Assembly: GCA_963664405.1 (NCBI GenBank)
Contig: OY761158.1
Span: forward strand, 2,688,001-2,752,000
Direction: 5' to 3'
Length of the DNA: 64,000 nt
From: Thermoanaerobaculia bacterium
GTDB lineage: Bacteria > Acidobacteriota > Thermoanaerobaculia > Multivoradales > Multivoraceae
Every line of letters begins with the position of its first letter. Within the stretch, counting starts at the first letter, position 1. Shown in pieces: positions 18,403 to 25,805 of the stretch. A program made the position numbers and the translations under genes. The notes under the pieces are model-generated. The model did not search any database. It was not told the DNA's origin and worked only from the letters and a program-made list of their open reading frames with translations.

Positions 18403-18478
18403 GCCCAGGTAGCTCAGTCGGTAGAGCACGTGACTGAAAATCACGGTGTCGGTGGTTCGATTCCGCCCCTGGGCACCA
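18403..18478 (+). tRNA. tRNA-Phe (anticodon GAA)
   Basis: GCCCAGG...CCTGGGC-A-CCA; anticodon arm CGTGA-CTGAAAA-TCACG. Confidence 0.97.
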
Positions 18479-18616: not shown

Positions 18617-18930
18617 GCAAGATCGGCCGTAGCGAGTTCCTTCTGCTCTCGAACCGGGTTCGGACCGGCACGCTCCAAGGATTCGAGGAGGTGCTGGGGA
18701 GCGTCGGTCGGGACGAGGTGGACGCCCCGAAGGCTCCGGCGAGCGTCGACTCCCACTCGTCTCAGCGGTCCTCGGACCGGTACGCGCCACGCCCCCGCTC
18801 ACGGAAAGTCGTCCACCAGGATCTCTTCAAACCCGGCACGGAAACCTCGACAGGGATCCCTGTCCCTACCAGAAACTCCATCCGCGCAGCAGTTTCGGAC
18901 GTCACACTTGCCAGGAGTATCCTTGGTGTG

Positions 18931-19706
18931 ATGATTCGTCTTCTAGGAGTATTGCTTCGCTCAGTAGTGGCGGCACTCCAGACTCGCCGCCAGCTCGCCC
19001 TCGAAAACCTGGCTCTTCGGCAGCAGCTCTCAGTGCTTCTGTCGGCGCGGCGGCCGTCTTTGACCAACCTCGATCGGGTCTTCTGGACCATTCTCCGGCG
19101 CCGATGGAGTCATTGGACGCACGCGCTCGTGATCGTGCAGCCCGAGACCGTCGTCCGCTGGCACCGGCAGGGATTCAGGCTGTACTGGCGATGGAAGAGC
19201 CGAAATGGCAGCGCTGGACGGCCGAAGATAGACCCGGAGGCCCGAGCCTTGGTTAGAAGGATGAGCTTGGCCAACCCGTTCTGGGGCGCACCGAGGATTC
19301 ATGGCGAGCTCCTCAAGCTAGGGATCGAGATCTCGGAGACGACGGTCGCCAAGTACATGCCGAGGTCGCGCCGGCCACCCTCTCAGTCCTGGCGAGCATT
19401 TCTGGACAACCATCTCAAGGATCTGGTCTCAATCGACTTCTTCACGATCCCCTCGGCGACATTCCACGTCCTTTTCGTCCTCATCGTCCTCCGCCACGAC
19501 CGCCGGCGCATCCTTCACTTCAACGTTACCGAGCATCCCACCGCGGAGTGGACCGCCCAGCAGATGGTTGAAGCGTTTCCTTGGGACACAGCACCGCGCT
19601 ATCTCCTCCACGATCGCGATGCGGTTTTCGGAAACAACTTCCGGTCGCGTGTGGCTGGGCTCGGAATGGCCGAGGTGCTCATAGCACCACGATCGCCTTG
19701 GCAGAA
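18931..19706 (+). pseudogene. rve-type DDE transposase, 5' part (to ...PRSPWQ)
   Basis: LENLALRQQL, VQPETVVRWHR, WGAPRIHGELLKLG, SIDFF and LHDRD motifs; joins 23062-23311 to give a 341-aa ORF. Confidence 0.9.
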
Positions 19707-19709
19707 GGG

Positions 19710-21803
19710 CTACGCTTCACACTGCACCTCCTCCGTAGGGTTCGGTTCGACGTCGAGGCGGCGCCGTCGTTTCGAGAGTTTTCGGCCCTGCATTTTGACG
19801 GGCGGGTCGTCGCCGGGATGCTCGTAGAGGCACTCGTTCTTGTCGTTGTAGGCATGGGCACGCAGCAGGCCGTGGTTGCGCCATGTCTTCACCGTGTGGG
19901 TCGCGACACCCAGTAGGTCAGCCATCTCTTCGAGGGTAAGCATTCCCCCCTCACGCAGTCGGTCGTACCTCTTCTTGATGTCGTAGTCACGGCGCAGGCG
20001 CCGGACGATGCCGGCGTGAAATCGTTTGCCCTCTCCGGAGAGATGGCCTCTGTCGTTGAGGATGCTCGCAATCTCGGCCTCGGTGTAGTCATCAAGCAGG
20101 GTATCAATCTCGGCAACGACCTGTTTCGAGGTTTGGCGTAACTCCCATGCTGTCGGCGGAATGGGCAGTTTGAGACTTCGTGTCGCGCCACCTCGGAAGC
20201 GGACACCGACAACGATCTCGTCGCCCTTCGTCAAGGTGACGTCCTCGATGAGCAAGCGCACCATGCGCTTGCGCTCGCGTTGAGGCGTCTTCGGGTCGTT
20301 CCACAACCGCGGGAAGTCGGTGGCGAGGGCGAGGATCTCTTCTCGTTGCTGGTCGCCGAGCTGTTGGTGATCTTGCTGGCGGCGCTGCTCGAGCTCCTCC
20401 TGTGCGTCGTGCAGCCCGCGCAGCCTCTCGTTCCACTCGGCCTCGAGGACATCCACCACGAGGCGGTTCCCCGGATCGACCTCCATGAAGCGACGCCGAG
20501 CCAAGTCAGCCTCCTGTCGAGCTCGCTGTACGTGCTGGCGCCGCAGGGAATCGGCCTCGTGGATCCGTGCATCGAGCTCGACCTGGACTTTCAGTGCAAC
20601 CTCCAGAGTCACAGGCGTAACCGTCTCCACAAGCAGCTCTCCGATGGCCCGATCGATGCCCTTGCCCGGGATCGACTGACACTTGGGTGTCGCGGTGTCG
20701 ATGCCCTCGCGCTGGCAGACGTACTCGGGCCACTGAGTGCCCCTGCGCGTGTGATAGCGGACCGTCATCCGATGGCCACAAACGCCGCAGAGGACCAAGC
20801 CCTGCACCAGCGCTGGCCCCTCGCGCGGTGGGCTCTTACGCCGGTCTCGGCCGTGGGCCTGGGCGTTGTCTCGTAGTCGTCTCAGGTTTTCTTCGAATCG
20901 TTCCCAAGGAATGTAACCGGGGTGCGCGTCGAGCAACAGCGCGGTCCACTCCTCCCGCGGAAGCGACTTGACCTCGACGGTGCCGTTGACGCGCTTTTGC
21001 GTGTGAGTGCGACCGAAACAGAAAGCACCTGCGTAGCGGGGATTGTGCAGCACCCTCAGGACGCGCCAGTGGCGCAGCGACTCCCACAGCAGCTCTCCCT
21101 TGTGGGGGCCGAAGCGCGGCCGGCGCGGAAACCGCAAGCCTTGCTCGCGGAAGTGTTTGACCGTCGCCGAGGCCGAGCCCGTACGCTCGAAGGTCTCGAA
21201 CAGGTGCTCGAAGCTCCGTTGGACCTGGCCGTCGGGATCTAACACGACGTTGCCGGCCGGGTCGTAGAGTAGGCCGACGGGTAACGGGGTTTGCAGCGCA
21301 CCTCGGCGCGCCTGATTCAGAATGCCTCCGCGCAGCCGAGCCCGCATCACGTGAAGCTCCGCCTCGCTCATCGTGCCCTTGAGCCCGAGCAGAAGGCGAT
21401 CGTTGAAATCACTCGGGCTGTAGACCCCGTCCTCGTCAAGGATCAGCGTGTCGGTCAGCGCGCAGATCTCCAGCAGTCGATGCCAGTCCGTGCTATTGCG
21501 TGCCAGGCGCGAAACCTCCAGCCCGAGAACGATCCCGGCTCGGCCCATACCGACCTCGCCGACGAGCTTCTGAAAGCCCTCGCGGTCGACGCTGGAGGCT
21601 GCGGACTTACCCAGGTCCGAGTCGATCACGAGGACTCGCTCGATGGGCCATCCCATCGCCACCGCGCGCTCTCGCAACGCGTACTGCCGTCTCGTGCTCT
21701 CCGTATTCTCGAACACCTGGCGCACGGTCGACTGGCGAACGTACAGGTACGCATCGCGTCGCAGGTGGCTTGGGGTCACCTTCTGGTGGGCGCTTGCGCT
21801 CAT
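19710..21803 (-). CDS. Large serine recombinase (resolvase + recombinase + zinc ribbon + coiled coil + C-terminal HTH); resembles Rhizobium NGR234 Y4bA/Y4pH
   Basis: YLYVRQST, DLGKSA..DREGF, EVSRLARN, LHNPRYAG, HPGYI and CGVCG..M motifs. The Y4bA likeness is from recall. Confidence 0.93.
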   Translation of the reverse strand: MSASAHQKVTPSHLRRDAYLYVRQSTVRQVFENTESTRRQYALRERAVAMGWPIERVLVIDSDLGKSAASSVDREGFQKLVGEVGMGRAGIVLGLEVSRLARNSTDWHRLLEICALTDTLILDEDGVYSPSDFNDRLLLGLKGTMSEAELHVMRARLRGGILNQARRGALQTPLPVGLLYDPAGNVVLDPDGQVQRSFEHLFETFERTGSASATVKHFREQGLRFPRRPRFGPHKGELLWESLRHWRVLRVLHNPRYAGAFCFGRTHTQKRVNGTVEVKSLPREEWTALLLDAHPGYIPWERFEENLRRLRDNAQAHGRDRRKSPPREGPALVQGLVLCGVCGHRMTVRYHTRRGTQWPEYVCQREGIDTATPKCQSIPGKGIDRAIGELLVETVTPVTLEVALKVQVELDARIHEADSLRRQHVQRARQEADLARRRFMEVDPGNRLVVDVLEAEWNERLRGLHDAQEELEQRRQQDHQQLGDQQREEILALATDFPRLWNDPKTPQRERKRMVRLLIEDVTLTKGDEIVVGVRFRGGATRSLKLPIPPTAWELRQTSKQVVAEIDTLLDDYTEAEIASILNDRGHLSGEGKRFHAGIVRRLRRDYDIKKRYDRLREGGMLTLEEMADLLGVATHTVKTWRNHGLLRAHAYNDKNECLYEHPGDDPPVKMQGRKLSKRRRRLDVEPNPTEEVQCEA

Positions 21804-22087
21804 GCGTGGTTCTCCCGTACATGGCCGAGAGCCATCGCAGCCAACACGTTGATCAGATCCGCGCTCGTATCGTGAGGCAGCGCGGACGGCCTGGCTATCT
21901 CGGCGGACGGTGCCTGCGTCGGCGCGGGCATCTTGGACCCCTGTTCAACCCAAGCGGCCAGCCCTTGTCGCAGGAGAACGGCCAAGCCGAACCGAACCGA
22001 TAGGAGCTGCCGCTTCGCCGCATGTCCTCGGAGCTCCTCGTAGCGAGCGACATGGGCCGGAGCGTTCTGCTGGGGTGTCGCGCTCAT
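21800..22087 (-). CDS. Small accessory protein of the recombinase element (95 aa)
   Basis: ATGA overlaps with both neighbours; RYEELR...GLAVLLRQGLAAW. Confidence 0.8.
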   Translation of the reverse strand: MSATPQQNAPAHVARYEELRGHAAKRQLLSVRFGLAVLLRQGLAAWVEQGSKMPAPTQAPSAEIARPSALPHDTSADLINVLAAMALGHVRENHA

Positions 22088-22551
22088 GGCCGGCGTTTTT
22101 TTTCCTGGCGAGCCAGGGCTCGCTCAATGCTGCGCGGATGGATCGAGATGCCAAAGCGCTTCTGCACCCACTCGGCCAGGGCGGTTGCATCTGCGTCCGG
22201 CTCCCCCTCCAGCCTGTCGTGCAGGGCCTCGACGACCTCCTCGGATAGCTTGTGGGCGCGGCGCGGCCCCGGCTTTCTTGGCAGCAACGCGGGTAGGCCG
22301 CCTTCTTCGTAAACCACCTGGGCGTGGTAGAAGGATGGGCGCGACAACCCGAAGCTTGCCGCGCTCCGGCTCACCGTGTGTCTGTCCACCCGGACACGGC
22401 GCAGCATCTCGTACTTGACCTGCACGAGGTCTCGAGGGTCGAAGAACTCGCTCGAGGTGAACAAATCGTCCGAGACCTTCTCCGGCTGGGGATGAAGGCA
22501 CCCTCGTTGACGGAGGGCCTCGGCTTTCGGGTCGGGTCTGCGTCGCGGCAT
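22084..22551 (-). CDS. HTH protein of the recombinase element (155 aa)
   Basis: FFDPRDLVQVKYEMLR, FGLSRPSFY, GLPALLPRKPGP and HPRSIERAL motifs; RBS GAGGAG before MPRRR. Confidence 0.85.
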   Translation of the reverse strand: MPRRRPDPKAEALRQRGCLHPQPEKVSDDLFTSSEFFDPRDLVQVKYEMLRRVRVDRHTVSRSAASFGLSRPSFYHAQVVYEEGGLPALLPRKPGPRRAHKLSEEVVEALHDRLEGEPDADATALAEWVQKRFGISIHPRSIERALARQEKKRRP

Positions 22552-22766
22552 GATCGTCTCCTCATGGAATGTAATTCTAATTATACCTCTCATGGATCCT
22601 CTGTCAAGGGGTGTCCACCAAGAGAGTACCGATAGATCGTGCATTAAATTGGCCTATCTCTACACTCCTGGTCACACTCCGGCACTCTTCCCGACATAAT
22701 TGTGATTACATTCACGGCATAATCTCCTTTACGCACGGTGCCCCTCAACCGTCCTCACGCAGGTCT

Positions 22767-23059
22767 TCATCGCTCGCTCTCCCGGGTCAGCTTGGCGAGC
22801 TCGAGCAGGTCGGCCAAGCGGTACATCGATCTGCCTGCGGAGATGACAACCACGGGGTCCTCGGCCACCGCACTCGTCCAACGCGCTGGAAGGGAGCGTA
22901 GCTCCTCGCATTCATCCAGGTAGAAGACCCGGTCCTCGCCCCAGCACTGGCGATAGTGAGCCAGCTCGTACTCACGCCCCAACAGCGGGTGGAACGGATG
23001 GGTTACCCGAAAACGTCGTTGCTCACAATCTGTATCGGGTGCATTCGACCATCGAGCCC
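22767..23059 (-). CDS. DUF5372 / Y4bD-like small protein lacking its own start in the integrated state
   Basis: Open frame ...FRVTHPFHPLLGREYEL...WGEDRVFY...LPARWTS extends to the att junction; family assigned from recall. Confidence 0.75.
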
Positions 23060-23061
23060 AA

Positions 23062-23311
23062 TCCCTATGCTGAGCGCGTCATCGGCTCCATGCGGCGAGA
23101 ATGTCTCGATCACGTTATCGTGCTGAACGAGGCCCATCTCCGCCGGATTCTGCGTTCCTTCGTCACCTACTACCATCGCTCAAGAACCCATCTCTCCTTA
23201 GACAAGGATGCTCCTGAGGCACGAGAGGTGCAGGCTCCGAGGATGGGACGCGTGGTGGAGTTGCCCGAGGTCGGTGGGCTCCATCACCGGTACGAACGCC
23301 GGGCGGCGTAG
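23062..23311 (+). pseudogene. rve-type DDE transposase, 3' part
   Basis: PYAERVIGSMRRECLDH...YYHRSRTHLSLDKD...GGLHHRYERRAA. Confidence 0.9.
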
Positions 23312-23599: not shown

Positions 23600-24061
23600 T
23601 TCACCTTCGCCCGCTTGGCAAGCGCGATACGATCGGTTGACCCGAAAAGGAAATCCCTATCCCTTTCCAAAAGAAGCGTATGGCTCTCGCCGATTGCGCC
23701 GGGACTGCACCAGAATGTCGATCGCATCGCCGTCGTCATCGACAGCCCGCCACAGATACTGCCGCCGCCCCTGGATCTTCGCGAAGACCTCGTCCAGATA
23801 CCAAAAGTCGCCCATGCCGCCGCGGCGGCCCCGCAACGGCCGAGCGTAGTCGATTCCGAACATCACACACCATGGCCGAATCGCCTCCTACGTCACCGTG
23901 ATATACCGTTCTGCGAGGTCTCGGAAGCTGAGACCGAAACGGTGATAGAGCCAGACGGCGTCACGGATGATTTCAGGGGGAAACCGGTATCCAAACGATA
24001 GCTGGGTGGTGGGTTCGCCATCGACGTACTCTGCCAGCCACGGCCTCAACTTGCCAGCGCC
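23600..24061 (-). pseudogene. Degenerate IS6-family element (frameshifted and truncated transposase, one TIR)
   Basis: GYRFPPEII.DAVWLYHRF, WYLDEVF..IQGRRQYLWRAVD fragments; TIR AACTTGCCAGCGCC at 24048-24061; left limit approximate. Confidence 0.85.
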
Positions 24062-24090
24062 GCTGCTGGCCAACCAACGAGACGGCACAA

Positions 24091-24597
24091 GTGGAGACAC
24101 TACCTTTGACTAACTCACTCGAATCCAGCATCGGAGCTCGCGGCTTTCATTTTGTTGCTTTGTGTTTCTGTCTAATTTTTCCCGCTTGTGCGTCGGCGCC
24201 TGTCGAGTGGGTAGACGTACCGCTGGCCGATAATGTCTACTTTGAAGCCAGTCCTGTTTATCAGACGGACCAGGTTGAAATTCCAGTTCCTGCCAATTCG
24301 GATCTCGAATACATGCTGGACATGAAACAAGGTCATTCAGTGTCCTATCAGTGGAGATCCACAGACATCTCGAATCCTGAACTTCTTCTTGCAGAATTTC
24401 ATGGTCACACGGTAAGAGATTCTGAAGAGCCTGGAAATGTCATGTTTTTCAAGCAAGGCCGTGGCGACACGTCAGATGGCTATCTGGTCGCGCCTTTTGA
24501 CGGTGTACATGGCTGGTATTTTTCGAACGAAACGGACACTGATATCCATATCGCTCTTTCACTGTCTGGTTTCTACACAATACCTGACCCTGAATAA
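24091..24597 (+). CDS. Putative lipoprotein (LEY...EFHGH...APFDGVHGWY family), AT-richer than flanks
   Basis: Hydrophobic leader ending FPAC; visibly lower GC; lies between IS6 ends. Confidence 0.6.
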   Translation: METLPLTNSLESSIGARGFHFVALCFCLIFPACASAPVEWVDVPLADNVYFEASPVYQTDQVEIPVPANSDLEYMLDMKQGHSVSYQWRSTDISNPELLLAEFHGHTVRDSEEPGNVMFFKQGRGDTSDGYLVAPFDGVHGWYFSNETDTDIHIALSLSGFYTIPDPE

Positions 24598-24658
24598 GCA
24601 CTTCTTCTGGGGGCTAGATGAAGGGACATCGATGTAGTCGCCTCAAGGGCGTCGAGGG

Positions 24659-24793
24659 GGCACTGTCAAGTTGAGTTGACGAATTCGCGGGTATCGTTAC
24701 GCCCGAGACGATTCTGCGCTGGTACAGAAGACTGATCGCGAAGAAGTACGACGGTAGCGCCCGAAGAGGTCGAGGACGACCGATGACGCCGGT
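24659..24793 (+). mobile_element. Orphan IS6 end followed by a fragment of another rve-type transposase
   Basis: GGCACTGTCAAGTT at 24659; then [28 protein letters not shown]. Confidence 0.7.
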
Positions 24794-25001
24794 TGTCAAC
24801 GCCGGATGAAAATGTCCCATTTGTGGCGGGTGAAAATGTCCCACTCGACTCCGGGATGACCGGTCCCGACTAGGTCGTCTTTCCTCCCTTCGATCTTCTG
24901 CGGGCTCTGGACGCCGGAGGGCGAGGCGAAGCCGAGCCCGTAGGCTCCAAGGAGGGCCCGTAGAAGATCGGCGTGTTCTCGCATGCGGTAGCTGTTTCGT
25001 C
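24794..25001. mobile_element. IS21-family terminal remnant
   Basis: Starts TGTCAACGCC and carries two TGAAAATGTCCCA direct repeats; cut by the adjacent IS6. Confidence 0.65.
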
Positions 25002-25805
25002 GGTACTGTCAGGTTGAGCCGATGGGTGGCAGAGTCGGCCCATGAAAAGCAGCACGCCCAGCTACCGCGGTCACCGGTTTCCGCCCGAGATCATCACTCA
25101 CGCAGTCTGGCTCTACCACCGCTTCTGCCTGAGCCTTCGCGACGTCGAGGATCTCTTGGCGGAGCGAGGAATCGTCGTCTCCTACGAGACCATCCGTCAA
25201 TGGTGCCGGAAGTTCGGCACGGAGTACGCCCGCAAGCTGAAGCGGCGAAGCGGCCGACTGGGTGACACCTGGTTCTTGGACGAGCTCTTCGTGACCATCC
25301 AGGGCAAGAGGCAGTACTTGTGGCGTGCCGTCGATCAGGATGGCGACGTCATAGACATCCTCGTGCAGCCACGCCGTGATCGAAAAGCAGCGGAACGCTT
25401 CTTCCGCAAGCTCTTGCAGGGCCAAGGGGCAGAGCCGGTGCTCCTGGTGACCGACAAGTTGAGGAGCTATGGCGCAGCGCACCGGACCACTATGCCCTCT
25501 GTCAGGCACGATACGAGCCAGTACGCCAACAACCGTGCCGAGGTCTCCCATCAGCCGACCCGGCAGCGAGAGCGACAGATGCGCCGCTTCAAGTCGCCCG
25601 GCCAGGCGCAGCGATTCCTCTCCGCTCACGCAGTCATCCAGAATCTGTTCCGGGTTGGGCGGCACCTCGTCAGCTCAGCCAACTACCGGACGCTGCGAGA
25701 TCGCTCCTTCGGCGTTTGGCGACAGGAGACGTGCGTCTGCTGAACTCGGAATCAAGGCCCGTCCGCGGCACAAGCTCGCACCGGCAGGATTAACTTGACA
25801 GTGCC
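25002..25805 (+). mobile_element. Intact IS6-family element
   Basis: TIRs GGTACTGTCAGGTT and AACTTGACAGTGCC. Confidence 0.93.
25042..25743 (+). CDS. IS6-family transposase (233 aa)
   Basis: HRFPPEII, WFLDE, YLWRAVDQDG, VTDKLRSY and NNRAEVSHQPTR motifs. Confidence 0.95.
   Translation: MKSSTPSYRGHRFPPEIITHAVWLYHRFCLSLRDVEDLLAERGIVVSYETIRQWCRKFGTEYARKLKRRSGRLGDTWFLDELFVTIQGKRQYLWRAVDQDGDVIDILVQPRRDRKAAERFFRKLLQGQGAEPVLLVTDKLRSYGAAHRTTMPSVRHDTSQYANNRAEVSHQPTRQRERQMRRFKSPGQAQRFLSAHAVIQNLFRVGRHLVSSANYRTLRDRSFGVWRQETCVC

Follow-up and report, generated by a model that had tools for sequence, protein, structure and literature searches.

The window analysed here, a stretch of 64,000 nucleotides from the genome of a Thermoanaerobaculia bacterium (contig OY761158.1, positions 2,688,001 to 2,752,000), contains a mobile element that interrupts an IS481-like DDE transposase gene of a host insertion sequence (IS) and whose four genes lie on the minus strand in the order DUF5372, helix-turn-helix (HTH) protein, ORF95, and large serine recombinase (LSR) (Table 1). 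A blastn comparison of the element and its flanks with the whole genome revealed five copies, which share 98.7–100% identity and have identical ends, as well as another copy of the host IS, which is uninterrupted and represents the empty site. The two flank alignments overlap by exactly 2 bp at this empty copy, and the element is therefore 3357 bp long with a 2-bp core per end. Such a core is the expected trace of conservative recombination by a serine recombinase, with the target duplication confined to the core. The ends of related elements were also fixed in three other multi-copy genomes by copy-to-copy alignment, independently of any motif, and at the LSR end in these three genomes a Shine-Dalgarno (SD)-like GAGG is followed after 6 nucleotides (nt) by ATG or GTG, with the core 14 nt on and the joined frame running into DUF5372. 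Furthermore, cores other than TT (CT/CT, AT/AT, and GA/GA) agree between both ends of one copy, which confirms the end placement.

In the integrated state, the two parts of a possible gene lie at opposite ends of this element. The DUF5372 frame is open from its stop codon through the core TT at 23061-23060 and meets a TGA seven codons into host DNA, and in the window no ATG, GTG, or TTG occurs in it before the TTG at 22982, which itself lies past the HPFHP motif; likewise, neither a promoter nor an SD sequence nor a canonical start is found upstream of HPFHP in the integrated window element. At the LSR end, the SD-like sequence GGAGGAGG (19734-19727) is followed after 6 nt by a GTG (19720-19718), which opens only a 13-codon open reading frame (ORF) ending in host DNA, and the LSR stop TAG (19712-19710) and the core TT (19706-19705) follow on the same strand. 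When the ends are joined at the core by script, one open ORF of 102 amino acids (aa) containing HPFHP results. A sequence-only reading of the window had located these signals and had claimed a stub in the integrated state and a 102-aa protein after joining at the AA core, and all of its coordinates, together with both forms of the frame, were found to be correct when the sequence was re-read. The two arms of the element's attachment site (attP) have in common GGTGCA..T, 15–22 nt from the core in 35 representatives; beyond this motif, conservation at the SD and start positions is higher in the LSR-side arm than in its dyad partner. The interpretation put forward here, with a probability of roughly 70%, is that DUF5372 would be one gene split by the element's own attachment site and read whole across the joined ends, that is, a junction-spanning gene, and comparative evidence supports it as far as sequence allows.

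Table 1. Coordinates of the element, its junction features, its genes, and the interrupted host gene within the window.
Feature	Position	Strand	Remarks
Whole mobile element	19705..23061	-	3357 bp, including the 2-bp core at either end
Crossover core, LSR end	19705..19706	AA on +, TT on -	from copy comparison and empty site
Crossover core, DUF5372 end	23060..23061	AA on +, TT on -	from copy comparison and empty site
Shine-Dalgarno-like GGAGGAGG	19727..19734	-	6 nt ahead of junction start; within final LSR codons
GTG start of putative junction-spanning ORF	19718..19720	-	14 nt ahead of core
DUF5372 gene body	22767..23060	-	from Trp codon with second core base to stop 22767-22769
First canonical start codon (TTG) of DUF5372 frame when integrated	22980..22982	-	
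attP left arm	19707..19728	-	GGTGCA..T 15–22 nt from core; dyad partner of right arm; information profile of 35 representatives
attP right arm	23038..23059	-	GG beside core, then TGCAC 16 nt from core; encodes first DUF5372 leader codons
Sigma-70 consensus promoter TTGACA-16-TATAAT	22580..22607	-	12/12 hexamer matches
HTH protein, 155 aa	22084..22551	-	Pfam HTH_32, HTH_29, HTH_28
ORF95, 95 aa	21800..22087	-	no family match
LSR, 697 aa	19710..21803	-	Resolvase, Recombinase, Zn_ribbon_recom, C-terminal HTH_17/MerR_1
Host target 5′ part, IS481-like DDE transposase gene	18691..19704	+	broken off after ...SPWQ
Host target 3′ part (rve_3), same transposase gene	23062..23311	+	picks up at NPYAER...

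The conservation of this geometry was surveyed across the family. A protein search returned 457 relatives of DUF5372, and a scan of one genome per species gave 212 loci encoding a relative; in the best 80 of these 212 loci, which were kept, DUF5372 stands at one extreme end and the LSR stop lies ∼3.29 kb downstream at the other. The survey comprised 81 sequences, 60 of which were examined after 21 with less than 3330 nt downstream of HPFHP had been left out. The 3′ end was located in a frame-blind manner from conserved bases flanking the start codon, which was itself masked, and the 5′ end from the core dinucleotide and the dyad partner motif. Both ends were recognized in 45 of the 60, which collapse into 34 clusters at 90% nucleotide identity, and the script found 31 of the 34 clusters in frame across the joint, against one third by chance, so that the frame across attP is conserved in homologs circularized in silico, as the sequence-only reading had anticipated. 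The other three comprise a spurious site (L032), a site misplaced by the script that is in frame by copy alignment (L062), and a real 1-nt shift (L054). The linker from core to HPFHP mostly measures 60 nt and otherwise 57, 63, 66, or 69 nt, a multiple of three save in L054. SD-like GGAG, GAGG, or AGGA occurs in 34/34 clusters, but the SD positions served to find the sites, and the start codon alone is therefore the unbiased reading: 18 clusters have ATG and 15 have GTG, the remaining one being the spurious site, and in the 35 representatives its TG is invariant (35/35) with A (20) or G (15) as the first base.

The position of the LSR stop relative to the junction start varies, being +8 in 18 representatives, +1 in 10, −11 in two, and −20, −50, +18, and +20 in one each, and the bases of the junction start are read in three LSR frames or beyond the LSR stop. 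Since these bases are conserved in all of these settings, LSR coding is not the explanation, and since conservation is lower at the symmetric positions of the opposite arm, attP symmetry is not the full explanation of the start either. A stop at +1 (10/35) produces an ATGA or GTGA overlap, which looks like the arrangement of translational coupling. Fifteen of the 60 sequences failed the end criteria. Three of these, of marginal score just under the threshold (L067, L085, and L089), have ATG, TT at both ends, a 57-nt linker, and the frame; in L039 the script chose a wrong site, an ATG 14 nt before TT being present, and L082 has the ATG with mismatched cores. Eight others (L026, L038, L051, L053, L059, L069, L075, and L087) are truncated or decayed or, in L038, have a divergent LSR 3′ end, and in none of the eight could an LSR 3′ end be recognized; the remaining two (L071 and L076) are taken up below.

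The best-surviving alternative, which is rather unlikely, is that DUF5372 is an ordinary self-contained gene with an internal start used when integrated. Relatives would then use a TTG 17 codons before HPFHP (codon −17) or the GTG that encodes Val in RVTHP, this genome would use a start that is either non-canonical or further downstream, and the SD and xTG at the LSR end would be mere attP binding bases. Upstream DNA was sufficient in 77 sequences, and in 77/77 neither a stop nor an ATG occurs within the 20 codons that precede HPFHP, by which the leader is judged to be coding. Several observations speak for the internal start and weigh against a junction-spanning gene. The attP arms, which share GGTGCA..T and also TGA, the latter with a 1-nt offset, contain the SD and the start together with the first ∼8 codons of the leader, so that part of the conservation and of the fixed spacing is expected from LSR binding alone. 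Similarly, fixed arm geometry and a short linker make the frame conservation weaker than 31/34 suggests, and it perhaps rests on four to five independent in-frame insertions or deletions. L054, from a long-read metagenome-assembled genome, is the sole lineage with a true frameshift, and L076 has CAG at the start position. GTG occurs at the Val codon two residues before HPFHP in 28/77, and TTG at codon −17, which is the annotated start of 49 of the best 120 database proteins and is present in 7/77 loci, is common in the clade nearest the window, with GGAG 4 nt upstream in some loci; this is the chief caveat, since these relatives may make the protein when integrated, and the TGG of the window could be a lost start. 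In addition, a plasmid copy of Burkholderia sp. PAMC 26561 (L162) has an internal in-frame ATG, which is the start annotated at NCBI, yet the same copy keeps the SD, the GTG, the 14-nt spacing, and the frame at its LSR end.

Against an internal start stands the lack of any conserved position. No canonical start occurs in the 20 codons before HPFHP in 31/77 sequences, and the GTG of RVTHP is the sole candidate in 22/77, the Val codon being GTA, GTC, ATA, ATT, or ATC elsewhere. Codon −17 is TTG, CTG, TCG, TGG, CCG, TCT, or CTT and differs as TCG/TTG even between 99.9%-identical copies in one genome. Moreover, with its beginning ∼11 nt from the element end the gene has no room for a promoter, the junction start begins with A or G alone across three LSR reading frames, and the overlap with the LSR stop recurs in 10 of the 35 representatives. 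The expectation of the sequence-only reading that homologs lack an internal start thus held in part, in that no position is conserved and 31/77 have none, while TTG at codon −17 is common in the nearest clade; its recombination-gated switch likewise agrees with a geometry conserved family-wide, with the qualification that some relatives may initiate at TTG −17 in the integrated state. Translation from the TTG at 22982, which it had named as a rival start, is not favored and was rejected: the codon is Phe in most homologs, and the product would miss the invariant H21, H24, P25, and L26, all of which lie in the LSR interface predicted below. The N-termini of the best 120 database proteins are correspondingly heterogeneous, beginning 17 residues before HPFHP in 49, two residues before it in 27, and in the rest at many positions that reach into unrelated flank, and, on the junction-spanning interpretation, gene callers assign to the DUF5372 family N-termini that are probably wrong.

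A second alternative regards DUF5372 as a dead remnant in this genome, its start lost by a change from TTG to TGG, with the LSR alone moving the element and the GTG being functionless inherited geometry. The five copies in the window's genome all have TGG at codon −17 where close relatives have TTG, and their number means that the element has spread without a canonical in-element start. However, the frame is open and the ends are identical in 5/5 copies, many other start-less lineages keep the open frame and the invariant residues, and broken junction modules go with a broken LSR, as in L071, in which the GTG is followed by an in-frame TAA and the LSR is frameshifted; this alternative is accordingly improbable. 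Expression in the integrated state by host read-through, as a fusion started in the flank or from tandem copies, is highly improbable, for although in two of the own-genome copies the frame runs on open for 174 codons beyond the element end, the flanks vary between copies and are antisense to transposase genes, most loci have a stop 2–25 codons outside the element with no start between, and an LSR of the same family ending just before DUF5372, whether as tandem copies or as an ancestral unsplit arrangement, was found in 0/38 loci with at least 2.5 kb of upstream sequence.

Returning to the junction-spanning gene, the promoter content of the element bears on how it might be expressed. The only strong promoter-like site of the element is the consensus promoter at 22607-22580, located past the end of DUF5372 and ahead of the HTH gene, and the DUF5372 frame, with its start region ∼11 nt from the element end, reaches the last base of the element and leaves no room for a promoter of its own. 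Scanning the gene strand of the element revealed no terminator-like site, and no sigma-70-like pair (at least 9/12 matches) occurs within 150 nt of the joined ends on either side and on both strands. A junction promoter of the type known from Tn4451 and IS circles was consequently rejected, as no −35/−10 pair is formed by joining the ends. An 18-nt inverted repeat (22567-22584/22696-22713, 83% complementary) brackets the consensus promoter, with one arm overlapping the −10 box, and is a candidate operator, perhaps for the element's HTH protein.

In the proposed sequence of events, the integrated element of this genome has the body of DUF5372 at its extreme 5′ end, without promoter, ribosome-binding site, or canonical start, and the matching SD and GTG at its extreme 3′ end, where they overlap the last LSR codons and open the 13-codon stub. 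Excision by the LSR at the 2-bp core would join the ends, and on the circle the operon of HTH, ORF95, and LSR, transcribed from the internal promoter, would extend across attP, so that DUF5372 would become its last gene. Ribosomes at the SD and GTG, probably coupled to LSR termination, would read five codons, cross the core, and enter DUF5372 to give the 102-aa protein, of which the first ∼20 residues would be an attP-encoded and probably disordered leader. Both the formation of the circle and the transcription and translation of the junction ORF are inferred from sequence.

Circles were sought in public data. A joint that skips 3355 nt (19704 to 23060) was present in three of four public runs, for which only contigs were available, and was rejected as a sign of excision, since the second uninterrupted IS copy explains it. 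No circle back-joint was found among the contigs of public runs holding the stretch, in which rare forms are dropped. Among metagenome contigs, a strict pattern of the joined ends gave 0 matches and a relaxed pattern gave 69, of which 0/69 had the DUF5372 motif after it; most of the 69 belong to an unrelated high-copy repeat of assembly JAAUYG01 (L093-L161) that matches by chance.

The DUF5372 protein matches Pfam PF17342 (E = 8.1e-21, 74.3 bits against a cut-off of 25) over profile positions 1–73 of 78, with position 1 at RVTHP, and all five own-genome copies exceed the Pfam cut-off. Its structural model (mean confidence score pLDDT 76.7) has residues 1–13 below 50 and thus disordered, followed by a small beta-barrel and a C-terminal helix. 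A fold search of the model against PDB gave 0 matches at E ≤ 0.001, the best being ribosomal protein eS4 and small SH3-like barrels (best E 5.6e-3, TM ∼0.4), matches too weak for a fold family to be named, and a profile search of PDB sequences gave 0 matches at E ≤ 1. The recombinase has the composition of a large serine recombinase, with Resolvase (E = 2.8e-17), Recombinase (E = 1e-11), and Zn_ribbon_recom (E = 2.2e-07) matches in Pfam and, in its model, a zinc beta-ribbon (residues 337–379) with an inserted coiled coil (397–478) formed by paired long helices (397–441 and 447–478) inside the zinc domain. R23-Q24-S25, the motif that contains the nucleophile Ser, is invariant in 25 LSR homologs. 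After the zinc domain, the LSR carries an extra C-terminal helical domain (residues 552–660, with HTH_17/MerR_1 matches) that is unusual for phage integrases and may help to read loosely conserved targets. For the HTH protein, the matches to IS630/IS481 transposase models in NCBIfam are confined to their N-terminal DNA-binding stretch and fall far below the cut-offs, and the protein looks like a transposase DNA-binding domain minus the catalytic part.

A complex of DUF5372 with the LSR was predicted from alignments of 23 and 25 sequences, respectively, in three runs with three controls. The score was 0.72 in all three runs compared with 0.00 for the best control, with contact agreement of at least 64% and a partner pLDDT of at least 69; the score mark is reached by 58/80 solved complexes and 2/110 mismatched pairs, counts that are rough here given that own alignments were used. 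The predicted interface involves THPFHP and the C-terminal helix of DUF5372, with the junction-encoded leader outside it, and residues 338–343, 394–414, 482–518, and 523–543 of the LSR, which the LSR model places in the zinc ribbon, in the opening turns of the coiled coil and the helices leading back from it, and in the strands that follow. The sequence-only reading had guessed at a cofactor or directionality factor, and the predicted docking lends this guess support; whether DUF5372 is indeed an LSR cofactor is judged to be about an even bet.

Recombination directionality factors (RDFs) of phage LSRs (phiC31 gp3 and the RDFs of TG1, Bxb1, and SPbeta) are reported to control direction at a hotspot formed by the zinc domain and the coiled-coil base (PMC11795197, PMC5814800, PMC11722253). 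DUF5372 resembles these factors in that it is predicted to dock at the same LSR site. It differs in that phage RDFs are made when integrated and drive excision, turning on recombination of attL with attR and inhibiting that of attP with attB, whereas DUF5372 of the window lacks both a promoter and a start when integrated and is not producible there. A cofactor that docks like an RDF and yet is absent when integrated misfits the textbook logic of RDFs, which adds a further point against the junction-spanning interpretation. Because an excision factor is needed in the integrated state, in which DUF5372 cannot be made, a role on the integration side is preferred, in which the protein would favor integration of the circle or block immediate re-excision rather than act as a classical excision factor; this assignment is itself doubtful. 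Alternatively, a classical RDF might be made by the first circle and then trigger excision of sister copies.

Genes split by an attachment site are known from the SSV-type ('suicidal') tyrosine integrases of archaea, in which the att site lies within the coding sequence, so that integration splits the gene and the circle carries it whole (PMC7253208). The proposed DUF5372 gene is similarly split by its own attachment site and would be whole only on the excised circle. In SSV, however, it is the tyrosine recombinase that is split, whereas here the LSR is whole and an accessory gene is split, with the SD, the start, and five codons on the far side. The SSV-type arrangement of attP within the recombinase ORF is not found here, since the LSR stop (19710-19712) precedes the core (19705-19706) in the window and the stop precedes the core in most of the 35 representatives as well, the latest two lying at +18 and +20 from the start. 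In Tn4451/Tn4453, which are moved by TnpX, the circular form is reported to make a promoter at the joint for the recombinase gene (Lyras and Rood 2000). Both cases concern small LSR-moved elements whose circle switches on, or here would switch on, expression across the joint; unlike Tn4451/Tn4453, the present element has no promoter-like site at the joint and would instead assemble a unit from which a second protein is translated.

Junction promoters are also present in IS circles (IS911, IS2, IS30, and IS21). For ICEKp1, an integrative and conjugative element (ICE), a state-dependent promoter is reported. These systems resemble the one proposed here in that the recombination state of the element determines whether genes are expressed, and they differ in that they act on transcription and with DDE or tyrosine enzymes. 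No IS circle or ICE of this kind is known to split an ORF from its start codon. Members of the IS607 family have a small serine recombinase, usually with TnpB; assignment of the element to this family was rejected, as its recombinase has 697 aa with Recombinase and zinc-ribbon domains and its other genes are HTH, ORF95, and DUF5372. The sequence-only reading was not aware of a prior description, and a literature search among largely open-access articles found no paper mentioning DUF5372, no description of the element family or of a start codon supplied across an LSR attP, and none of an IS-targeting hyperparasite of the kind considered below. Rated against these precedents, att-split genes (SSV) and circle-specific promoters are known, and what is apparently new is an accessory gene of an LSR element parted from its SD and start by attP.

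The element belongs to a family that spans many bacterial phyla and also occurs on plasmids from cultured strains of rhizobia, Burkholderia, and Rhodococcus. The four-gene order is common to most of 33 representative homologous elements: DUF5372, HTH, and LSR keep their order in 33/33, and ORF95 was found by tblastn in 24/33 and undetected in 9/33. Parts of the element are matched by 280 plasmid records, mainly of Sinorhizobium, Rhizobium, Bradyrhizobium, Burkholderia, and Rhodococcus, and cultured carriers therefore exist, among them Rhodococcus jostii RHA1 and Burkholderia sp. PAMC 26561. The family inserts antisense into genes of other mobile elements at codons of catalytic motifs, and in 34/46 copies the core AA supplies positions one and two of a codon for Asn or Lys that precedes a Glu by four codons ([N/K]xxxE). 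The targets, as judged by eye, are IS481-, IS21-, IS3-, and ISL3-like DDE transposases. In the AT-core lineages, insertion occurs at the Met of ME(A/S)TG, an IS110-like target, and in Spirochaetia copies it occurs in an HNH-like gene. Within the window's genome, one 99%-identical element occupies three target families. The family looks like a hyperparasite of insertion sequences.

One of the own-genome copies (copy C, G000 3059614-3062970) is bordered upstream by IS3-like sequence (...SRKGDCWD) and downstream by IS21-like sequence (KGRVERAIRF...), the latter identical to the downstream flank of copy D, and these chimeric flanks suggest rearrangement between two element copies. In the surroundings of the window element, a tRNA-Phe (GAA) gene lies at 18403-18478, just upstream of the interrupted IS481-like element, and IS-like ORFs at ∼23600-25750, for example an IS6-like transposase at 25042-25743 (by eye), mark the neighborhood as an IS-rich patch.

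If the junction-spanning interpretation is correct, DUF5372 would be a natural gene whose translation unit exists in one topological state of the DNA only, and would provide a recombination-gated switch that needs no regulator. The predicted complex would further give a function-level lead for DUF5372, as an LSR partner at the directionality hotspot, and would raise the testable question of how direction is controlled when an LSR serves a transposon and not a phage. An LSR that is accompanied by a small cofactor and selects its targets loosely, at the level of a motif, may also interest genome engineers. In its fullest form, which is possible with the odds somewhat against it, the proposal is that attP cuts a cofactor gene so that the cofactor would be made only on the free circle, in an inversion of RDF logic that would license integration into degenerate targets or block re-excision, with the LSR alone sufficing for excision, and that the family would be a hyperparasite of insertion sequences that is widespread and carries a switch that times itself without any regulator.

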